A DNA stretch of 64,000 nt from a virus (Duplodnaviria > Caudoviricetes): the IMG/VR virus record IMGVR_UViG_3300030097_000310, positions 2,760-66,759 of that record; one strand, given 5' to 3'. The notes beneath the pieces were generated by a model, which was given only the letters and a program-made list of their open reading frames with translations, searched no databases and had not been told where the DNA came from. Position 1 is the first letter of the stretch; the number at the start of each line of letters is the position of its first letter. Made by a program: the position numbers and the translations under genes. Shown one piece after another: positions 29 to 57,890 of this stretch.

Positions 29-991
29 GTGCTGCACGACCAGGCGAACGGTTGGCAGACAGCGTTTCAGTACGTCGAAGGTTCGATGGTGAACCTGTCG
101 ACGCGCGGCAACGGTTATGCGTACATCGAACGCAATAACCGCGGACAGACTATCAGGCTTACGCCGCTCAATCCGGATCCGGTTATTATCGACCAGGCGA
201 TCGACTGGTCGCCGCTCTACAGCGTTACGCTGCCTGACAATACGCGCGCTAAACGGCTTACGTCTCGCGAGATACACCATATCTCTGGGCCACTGCCTAA
301 AGGCTATGTCGGGCAGTCGATGATTTCTCTTGCGCGTGACGCGATCGGGCTTGGCTTGGCAGCGGAACGGTTCGGATCGCATCTGTACAAGAACGGCGTG
401 AAGCCTAGCGGAGTGCTTAAGCACCCAAAGGCTATCGGGCCGGAGGCTACCGACAATCTTCGGCAGCAGTTCGAGTCCAAGTACGGCGGGCTTTCAAATT
501 CCAGCCGGCCGCTTGTGCTTGAAGAGGGCATGGAATGGATAGCAATGTCCATCGCGCCCAACGACGCGCAGTTCCTCGAAACGAGGAAATTTCAGCGCAG
601 CGAGATTGCCGGTATCTTTCGCGTACCGGCGCACTTGGTCAACGACCTTGAGCGCGCGACGTTCTCCAATATCGAGCACCAGACGCTTGAGTTTGTAATC
701 CATAGTTTGCGGCCGTGGCTGAAGCGATGGGAACAGGCGATTAATCGCGACCTATTGGCTCCTCAAGAGCAGGGCGAATACTTCGCCGAGTTCCTTATGG
801 ATGATCTGCTCCGCGGCGATATCAAGTCGCGTTACGAGGCATATGCGCAGGCCGTCCAAAACAAATGGATGAACGCCAACGAGATTCGTATTCGCGAGAA
901 CATGAATCCGCGCGAAGGCGGCGACGTTTACGAAAACCCTGCAATTCAGGTCAAGGAAGCGGCGACTACGCCGGCGCCAGCAGGCACATAA
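29..991 (+). CDS. HK97-family portal protein (5' part missing from window)
   Basis: Portal motifs LSTRGNGYAYI, QFLETRKFQRSEIAGIFRVP, ATFSNIEHQ, NEIRIRENMNP; first gene of head cluster. Confidence 0.95.
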   Translation: MLHDQANGWQTAFQYVEGSMVNLSTRGNGYAYIERNNRGQTIRLTPLNPDPVIIDQAIDWSPLYSVTLPDNTRAKRLTSREIHHISGPLPKGYVGQSMISLARDAIGLGLAAERFGSHLYKNGVKPSGVLKHPKAIGPEATDNLRQQFESKYGGLSNSSRPLVLEEGMEWIAMSIAPNDAQFLETRKFQRSEIAGIFRVPAHLVNDLERATFSNIEHQTLEFVIHSLRPWLKRWEQAINRDLLAPQEQGEYFAEFLMDDLLRGDIKSRYEAYAQAVQNKWMNANEIRIRENMNPREGGDVYENPAIQVKEAATTPAPAGT

Positions 992-56534: not shown

Positions 56535-56851
56535 GTGAACATGACCCATCTTCTTGTCATGTCTGTGGACGTAGGGCGATCGGCGTAAGCGCGCACGACA
56601 ACCCGCCGCGGTGGTTATGCCGTGAATGCGTCGACATCATCGAGCACATACGCAGCGTCAAGCGTCTTGATGCTTACGAGCTAAAAGCGCGTGCCGGCGG
56701 GATGGAAGCGGCCGGCGCTGTTATCGAGCGGTACGGCACGGACCTAGGCGCTTACGAGGAAAGCCAAGCGCTCGAGTTATGCGGCGCCATTTGGCGCGGC
56801 TGCGCCGATGAACTCCGGAGGATTATTGTCGATGACCAAGCGCCTTTCTGA
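56531..56851 (+). CDS. Hypothetical zinc-binding protein
   Basis: CHVCG..CREC; ends DDQAPF. Confidence 0.65.
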   Translation: MSEHDPSSCHVCGRRAIGVSAHDNPPRWLCRECVDIIEHIRSVKRLDAYELKARAGGMEAAGAVIERYGTDLGAYEESQALELCGAIWRGCADELRRIIVDDQAPF

Positions 56852-57890
56852 TAACGATAATGCGCCGGTTGTTTCTGGCCGCAACAACAAGGCACACGCC
56901 TATTACAACGAAATAGACCCGCAAGCAGCAGCGTGGCTGCGCGAGCTAATCAAACAGGGCCACGTGGCGCCGGGAGATGTAGATGAGCGTTCAATTGTCG
57001 ATGTTCGACCCGCCGACCTTGCCGGGTACACCCAATGCCACTTCTTCGCAGGAATCGGAGTCTGGAGCTACGCCTTGCGCAAAGCAGGGTGGCCGGACGA
57101 CCGCGCCGTCTGGACCGGATCCTGCCCATGCCAGCCTTTCAGCAGCGCAGGCAAAGGAAATGGGTTTGATGATGAGCGGCACCTATGGCCGGCGTGGTTT
57201 TGGCTTATCCAGCAGTGCCGACCTTCAGACATCATTGGAGAGCAGGTTGCGAGCAAGGACGCAAATCCTTGGGTCGACCTTGTACAAGATGACCTGGAAG
57301 GAATGGATTACGCCTTCGGGGCGGTCCCGTTCCCGTCTGCGGGCGTCGGCGCTCCGCACATCCGCGACAGGCTCTACTGGACGGCAAGGTTGGCCGACGA
57401 CACGACAAGCGGACGGCGAGAAGAACGTGAGGACGGAAGAGGGCGCGCTATCGGAGATAGCGCGCAAGGGATCGCCACAGGACTTGATACAAGCGGCGCA
57501 GATTGCAGGCTGGCCCAGTCCGACAAAATCCAATGGGGATGGCGGTCAAAGACTGCCGAAGGGGTCAACGATAACAGGACGGAGACCGAATGGAACGAAG
57601 GCAACAGTATCGCTTCCGGGAGTGGTGCAGTTCATAGACACGGACGGCCCAGCCCGACTAACGGCTTCTGGTCAAATCCTGACTGGCTCTTCTGCCGGGA
57701 TGGAAAGTGGAGGCCAGTTGAATCCGGCACATTCCCGCTGGCTCATGGGGCTTCCGCCCGCGTGGGACGACTGCGCGGTTACGGCAATGCAATCAATGCC
57801 GAAGCGGCAATCGCGTTCATCGAAGCGCGCGAAGAAGCAGTAGCGGACATCACTGCCGCAAACGACAACACCACGAAAAAGGCCGCCTAG
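56832..57890 (+). CDS. C5-cytosine DNA methyltransferase, alpha-type chain lacking motif IX
   Basis: FFAGIG (I), SCPCQPFS (IV), GEQV (VI), HIRDRLY (VIII), GYGNAI (X). Confidence 0.9.
56983..57843 (+). CDS. Nested alternative-frame ORF: beta-type methyltransferase chain with motif IX
   Basis: 286 codons inside the MTase gene; GGGAGA RBS; [14 protein letters not shown]. Confidence 0.75.

Follow-up and report, generated by a model that had tools for sequence, protein, structure and literature searches.

M.EcoHK31I (E. coli HK31, YGGCCR; Lee, Kam and Shaw, 1995) is a two-polypeptide C5 methyltransferase in which the beta chain is nested in another frame of the alpha gene and activity depends on the two chains together (PMC2836561, PMC3404938). 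In the descriptions given by these two sources, the alpha chain carries motifs I–VIII and X as well as the TRD, and the beta chain carries only motif IX. M.AquI (CYCGRG) is also a two-subunit C5 methyltransferase, and its smaller chain contains motifs IX and X (PMC3404938). In the literature searched, M.EcoHK31I was the only experimental precedent found, and no description of the phage alpha/beta family reported here was found.

The window, the whole 64,000-nt stretch of viral DNA that was analyzed, encodes an orphan prophage C5 cytosine methyltransferase. We consider it very probable that this enzyme consists of two polypeptides read from one DNA stretch, which assemble into the active form. 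The earlier note on this DNA had recognized the main ORF by its motifs, had placed an 861-nt ORF with its own ribosome binding site wholly inside it, and had cited M.EcoHK31I in the terms given above, in agreement with the published descriptions (PMC2836561, PMC3404938). FAGIG, PCQ, GEQV, PHIRDR and GNAI were all read directly in frame A, and the nested ORF, its start and the GGAG ahead of it are located in the +1 frame (Table 1). The nested ORF occupies 861 of the 1059 nt of the alpha gene according to the ORF list, so that 81% of the gene is dual-coding, where about 80% had been claimed. Frame B contains QLSMF (residues 4-8), GWPTT (136-140) and GWPSP (176-180), followed by a motif-IX-like stretch of 16 residues (246-261). 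The nested chain had been said to end in its motif IX equivalent; the motif is present, but it is not the literal end, as 25 residues lie beyond it.

Both chains have alternative starts. For alpha, direct reading of the sequence identified no Shine-Dalgarno-like site ahead of ATG 56808. For beta, the window has both ATGs, and the better ribosome binding site belongs to 56983. In the frame of beta, positions 56977-56985 read ATG-TAG-ATG, so that a minimal ORF of one start and one stop codon lies directly ahead of the first ATG of beta; these bases fall within the conserved PGDVDE codons of alpha.

Table 1. Features of the alpha/beta gene in the window. Alpha regions are in 360-aa numbering; the last two columns compare each region with synonymous-codon shuffles.
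Feature	Position	Strand	Length or residues	Remarks	z	Loci above every shuffle
Alpha CDS	56832..57890	+	352 aa	C5 cytosine methyltransferase catalytic chain; alternative ATG 56808 gives 360 aa		
GGAGG, Shine-Dalgarno-like	56817..56821	+		10 nt 5' of alpha ATG 56832		
Beta CDS	56983..57843	+	286 aa	+1 frame, nested entirely in the alpha ORF		
GGAG	56973..56976	+		6 nt 5' of beta ATG 56983		
Alternative beta ATG	57001	+		conserved start of the family; would yield 280 aa		
Alpha N-terminal catalytic core	56898..57386	+	31-193	II/III-like segment, FAGIG, PCQ, GEQV, PHIRDR	14	40/40
Alpha linker (middle)	57387..57647	+	194-280		0.2	5/40
Alpha C-terminal conserved block	57648..57827	+	281-340	includes motif X GNAI	9.7	40/40
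Beta N-terminal region	57004..57387	+	8-135	on top of alpha motifs I–VIII	6.3	40/40
Beta middle	57388..57642	+	136-220	GWPTT (57388-57402) and GWPSP (57508-57522) modules	5.3	37/40
Beta C-terminal region			221-275		9.1	40/40
Beta motif-IX-like stretch	57718..57765	+	246-261	16 residues		

The likeness to M.EcoHK31I, which was judged by description rather than by sequence alignment, lies in the placement of beta wholly inside alpha in another frame, and this placement recurs in 163 of 163 loci. Unlike M.EcoHK31I, whose alpha chain includes the TRD, the alpha chain of the window has an unconstrained tether in its middle, and the conserved modules are in beta's frame. The window's beta also differs in its extent over the gene, its repeated GWPTP modules and its conserved N-terminal region. 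Moreover, M.EcoHK31I belongs to a restriction-modification system, whereas the gene in the window stands as an orphan within the replication module of a prophage. With M.AquI the locus shares a split in or near the variable region and would share a second chain with the recognition sequence and motif IX, both of which are putative in beta (PMC3404938). It differs from M.AquI in that motif X is kept on alpha and in that the genes overlap almost fully; nesting is not part of the account of M.AquI in PMC3404938.

The replication module lies on the plus strand and comprises an HNH/endonuclease VII-like gene, a small phage protein (phrog_19707), alpha/beta and a primase-helicase, the ATG of which directly follows the TAG of alpha. 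We found no restriction endonuclease gene among the genes adjoining alpha/beta, and thus regard the methyltransferase as an orphan phage enzyme. The window corresponds to positions 4-64003, reverse strand, of a 100,575-nt contig (C18). The alpha/beta gene occurs twice on this contig, as identical copies 66,769 nt apart, and the two terminal 33.8-kb stretches of the contig agree with each other, as a direct repeat, at 97.8% of positions. It is possible that the element is a phage or phage-plasmid of about 66.8 kb, present as 1.5 units in the assembly, or else a tandem prophage.

Alpha matched the Pfam family PF00145 over residues 101-242 only (1.2e-11; 45 bits against a cut-off of 22) and phrog_363 over residues 27-352, on profile positions 7-323 of 327 (3.8e-87). 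Its profile matched residues 71-173 of M.HhaI (E 2e-15). Motif I of C5 methyltransferases, FxGxG, binds AdoMet. The corresponding HFFAGIGVW of alpha (FAGIG at 57045-57059) is invariant in the family, and its alignment to the FAGLGG of M.HhaI is weak. Motif IV, PCQ, with the catalytic cysteine, is at 57126-57134, and motifs IV, VI (ENV) and VIII (QxRxR) were judged present from a 12-residue stretch and PHIRDR. Motif X, with the pattern GNxV/I close to the C-terminus, packs with the large domain of C5 enzymes; in alpha it reads GYGNAI (57783-57794) and is nearly invariant. The order of the motifs departs from the canonical I, II, III, IV and looks permuted, as a II/III-like segment comes ahead of FAGIG. 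The segment runs from AYYNEIDP to a 13-residue stretch, and FAGIG is only about 20 residues before PCQ; the region as a whole, PCQ included, is 56898-57134 (residues 31-109 in 360-aa numbering).

In the structural model of alpha, residues 20-190 and 320-345 are confident (core pLDDT about 90), and residues 192-282 are disordered (pLDDT below 50). The confident helix that starts at residue 323 (352-aa numbering), after motif X, aligns with the end of M.HhaI. Overall, the model superimposes on M.HhaI from residue 34 to the end, with a Z of 13.2 and an rmsd of 3.3 over ~186 residues. The aligned part is roughly the size of the M.HhaI large domain; as the alignment was obtained as residue ranges, the residues that alpha would be missing are deduced from these.

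In canonical C5 enzymes, a small domain with the TRD and motif IX is located between motifs VIII and X. Alpha appears to have neither TRD nor motif IX between VIII and X in the same chain, and because residues 194-280 are unconstrained and modelled as disordered, alpha alone appears to be an incomplete member of the C5 methyltransferases. The earlier note had described alpha as devoid of motif IX. A constrained or folded middle is indeed absent, but alpha contains a degenerate, 13-residue look-alike of the motif, and given this stretch alpha might work alone. Neither the IX-like stretch of alpha nor the motif of beta was recognized in profile searches. At positions 57718-57765, the same bases read one base apart give the 16-residue stretch of beta and a stretch of alpha given as 19 residues (R followed by 18). 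In this common register, each product is a loose fit to the motif IX pattern.

Beta matched phrog_1008 (5.8e-27), with residues 14-273 on positions 13-287 of 329, and phrog_31772 (5e-28). All three PHROG families are labelled DNA methyltransferase, and the two proteins of the window match them nearly end to end. In that library alpha and beta are kept as separate families, and the labels are silent on their being two frames of one gene. We found no Pfam or NCBIfam family for beta, and a profile search against solved structures gave no match even at E 10. Modelled alone, beta is poor (pLDDT 61), and the helix at residues 76-95 and the hairpin at 101-123 are its only confident parts. A wide fold search with this model had a best Z of 4.2, with nothing above noise, and a search of the ESM Atlas matched only clusters of viral hypothetical proteins.

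The 16-residue stretch of beta conforms to L.P......L.G.P..[WF] and is almost invariant, with L246, P248, R252, W253, L254, G256, P258 and W261 as the columns that vary little or not at all; no profile or structure search recognized it. With no family, structure or fold match for beta, its putative motif IX and TRD role is assigned from this pattern and from the position of beta in single-chain relatives. The GWPTP modules number from 2 to 8 or more and are the sole difference in longer beta relatives. Some beta-like proteins run in frame into a downstream methyltransferase domain, either Dam (PF05869; P0158, P0164 and P0172) or N6_N4_Mtase (PF01555; P0135, P0140 and P0169). Beta therefore seems able to form fusions with a second methyltransferase from the same island.

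To compare the two frames across the family, we used 160 loci from genomes and IMG/VR that were fetched by alpha alone, plus three phage records. A match to beta was present in the +1 frame of every one of these 163 loci, mostly from beta residues 1-7 to 275-286. Searches by tblastn with alpha or with beta pointed to identical places in over 200 phage records. Alpha matches had about 55-60% identity, and beta matches, which extend over about 90% of the beta chain, had 47-51%. The hosts of the matching phages include Pseudomonas, Xanthomonas, Salmonella, Burkholderia, Klebsiella, Escherichia and Rhodobacter.

As a null model, we permuted synonymous codons in one reading frame and then translated the other anew. 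The window has 286 open codons in the +1 frame against a shuffle mean of 138 (p=0.01). In the set of 157 loci, the mean open length of the +1 frame is 314 codons, compared with 165 in shuffles, and the open length of the +2 frame is like its null (68 vs 78). Similarity to the beta of the window was 599, as against 214 +/- 34 in alpha-synonymous shuffles (z about 12), and the reverse test, alpha given beta, returned 810 vs 213 (z about 17). Each result held in 40 of 40 loci; the loci are mutually related, and these counts, like those in Table 1, are of non-independent events. By region, both frames are under purifying selection over the N and C regions, and the middle of alpha scored like its shuffles (Table 1). 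The third-position entropy of alpha codons is 1.40 bits over the conserved codons ahead of the beta start, 0.90 bits under the N overlap and 0.67 bits under the C overlap. This comparison was made at equal amino-acid conservation and serves as an internal control. Because the C blocks of alpha and beta overlap and each is selected, both frames must be read to the end.

The start of beta is maintained, being either kept or replaced nearby. In 110 of the 157 loci, an ATG is aligned to Met7 of the window's beta (57001). Among the remaining 47, the majority carry an ATG six codons upstream, in the 56983 column, together with a GGAG-like site, and in nearly all an ATG lies no more than about ten codons away. 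The ATG of beta arises from an Asp codon of alpha, which is GAT in 89% of loci, compared with 38% for Asp overall. The nested ORF is thus a conserved, protein-coding gene, which supports the earlier reading.

The alpha linker (194-280) has no stop codon in any of the 157 loci. Beta-synonymous shuffles lead to an expectation of 1.8 stops per locus, with 29 of 157 loci stop-free; an open alpha had been a condition for entry into the set, at the cost of 7 of 164 loci, and the excess survives this filter. The third frame of the linker resembles its null (4.1 stops vs 4.0 expected). The alpha linker is therefore selected only for openness, without a sequence constraint of its own. As it is kept stop-free though unconstrained, the N and C parts of alpha must be one chain, joined by an arbitrary tether.

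A few rare relatives in which the same parts occur in a single chain were found among metagenome proteins. P0186 (608 aa) and P0187 (516 aa), each encoded on a contig of its own, are 69% identical to each other and have the order alpha-N, beta, alpha-C in one frame. They comprise an alpha-N part (about 50% identity), a DLFG.P motif and helix-hairpin like those of the beta N-terminal region, and GWPTP modules, which are followed by L.PEFSRWLMGYP and then by the alpha C block ending in GNAIVPQVA. The alpha-N core, helix-hairpin, GWPTP modules and L.PEFSRWLMGYP are common to the window and to P0186, P0187 and P0189 (all three are ENA singletons), and P0186 and P0187 share the alpha-C block as well. 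Unlike the window, where beta-N is stacked on alpha-N and beta-C on alpha-C, these proteins have their parts in tandem in one frame. In P0186 and P0187, beta sits where canonical C5 enzymes carry the small domain with the TRD and motif IX. That beta is held in frame between the two alpha halves is our main reason to consider it the inserted recognition part of the enzyme.

Searches for related loci with P0186 and with an alignment (A3) found no loci, and a strict DNA pattern for the single-chain form found none. A looser DNA pattern returned 42 loci; the complete ones are nearly all dual-coded like the window, and the single-chain form occurs in none. A simple frameshift cannot turn the tandem into the overlapped arrangement, and the only route that we can put forward is the duplication of a segment that would then be read in both frames.

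In combination, the coding signal in beta with its maintained start and motif-IX-like segment, the unconstrained middle of alpha and the single-chain relatives support the M.EcoHK31I-like, two-chain reading of the earlier note. Alpha, in frame A, would form the catalytic, AdoMet-binding large domain, with motifs I, IV, VI and VIII in its N part and motif X in its C part. The halves would be joined by a tether of about 90 residues, for which freedom from stops is needed and sequence is irrelevant. Beta would initiate at its own ATG in the +1 frame, either 56983 with the GGAG upstream or 57001. It would supply what alpha lacks, namely the helix-hairpin, the variable GWPTP modules, which probably contact DNA, and the motif-IX-like LNPxxSRWLMGxPxxW. 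Beta most likely provides the DNA-recognition part. The two chains would then join into an active enzyme that methylates phage DNA, probably to escape host restriction, a role taken from general knowledge of phage methyltransferases. The translation of beta, its assembly with alpha, its part in target recognition, the activity of the enzyme and its dependence on both chains, and the biological role are thus predictions of this model.

We weighed three other explanations of the nested frame. That it is a chance, untranslated open frame in GC-rich DNA might be suggested by the window taken alone, in which shuffles already average 138 open codons and the p value is modest at 0.01. However, conservation of the +1-frame protein is far over the synonymous-shuffle null at every locus tested, alpha third-position variation is suppressed only under the beta overlap, and beta-frame proteins form PHROG families of their own. 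We rejected this explanation, which has next to no probability, on the shuffle tests, the selection by region and the third-position entropy. Under a different explanation, the functional product is a frameshift fusion, made by a slip of the ribosome or the polymerase from frame A to frame B after motif VIII, so that alpha-N is continued by the beta modules and motif IX and independent initiation of beta is unimportant. In-frame chains of alpha-N and beta-C do exist: there are five among the best 150 representatives (P0201, P0234, P0278, P0333 and P0335) and also P0181, and one locus (L196) changes frame at a GA-rich RERERE tract. Yet these fusions are a small minority, are mostly from metagenome assemblies and are without motif X. 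The N-terminal 135 residues of beta lie upstream of any shift and are nevertheless selected, the beta ATG is conserved or compensated, the overlapping C blocks of alpha and beta are both selected, and the alpha linker, needless for a fusion, stays open. A fusion as the main product was therefore rejected on beta N selection, the maintained start and the open linker, and we regard it as quite improbable.

Slightly less improbable, but still doubtful, is that beta is a real protein unrelated to alpha catalysis, for example a DNA-binding or anti-defence factor, or a targeting subunit shared by neighbouring methyltransferases, that was overprinted on the gene only for compactness or co-expression. 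Beta has no detectable similarity to a solved structure or curated family, and the continuation of P0158, P0164, P0135 and P0140 into Dam or N4/N6 methyltransferase domains indicates that it is not tied to alpha alone. All other fusion partners seen are also DNA methyltransferases, however, and the place of beta between alpha-N and alpha-C in P0186 and P0187, the agreement of LNPxxSRWLMGxPxxW with the motif IX pattern and the unconstrained, disordered middle of alpha itself argue against this explanation and for beta as a part of the methyltransferase.

The earlier note had expected that standard annotation would miss beta. Plasmid records do list only alpha at such loci, but a few phage records annotate the beta frame. 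An example is PMG1_00057 of Pseudomonas phage PMG1 (NC_016765.1, 1620-2381), a 253-aa DNA methyltransferase described as Mte8-like. Based on its coordinates, this record appears to annotate the beta frame rather than alpha. The tblastn match of alpha there is in two pieces, which suggests that alpha is interrupted in PMG1. The literature gave no lead on the Mte8 label of this gene. In two MAGs, assigned to Planctomycetaceae (L166:897-2492, minus strand) and Lacunisphaera (L196:4975-6823, minus strand), an ORF for an HNH endonuclease directly follows beta, in the frame of beta and within the alpha ORF. Alpha remains open across it for ~170 extra residues before the GNAIVPQVA block, and there are thus three genes on one stretch.

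A broader scenario is tentative, and we consider it unlikely in full. It holds that the recognition half of a C5 methyltransferase was transferred to the +1 frame of the gene for its catalytic half, so that in thousands of phages the same DNA encodes two interlocking domains of one enzyme, that the GWPTP modules are exchangeable units whose number sets or multiplies specificity, that beta may serve neighbouring Dam or N4/N6 methyltransferases, and that the single-chain relatives record a transition between the overlapped and tandem forms. If true, this transition would need a segment to be duplicated and read in both frames, and we know of no earlier documentation of gene evolution by such a route.

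Outside small viruses, we know of few cases in which selection has been proven on both frames of a long same-strand gene overlap. In the window, 861 nt code twice, and this layout recurs in prophages and phages of many bacterial phyla. The family is thus a large natural data set on how two proteins share codons, and includes an unusual type of constraint, a linker selected only for openness. Annotation pipelines mostly report alpha alone. They thereby pass over beta, the likely specificity subunit in a widespread class of phage methyltransferases, and this gap bears on the prediction of phage methylation patterns and of escape from restriction.
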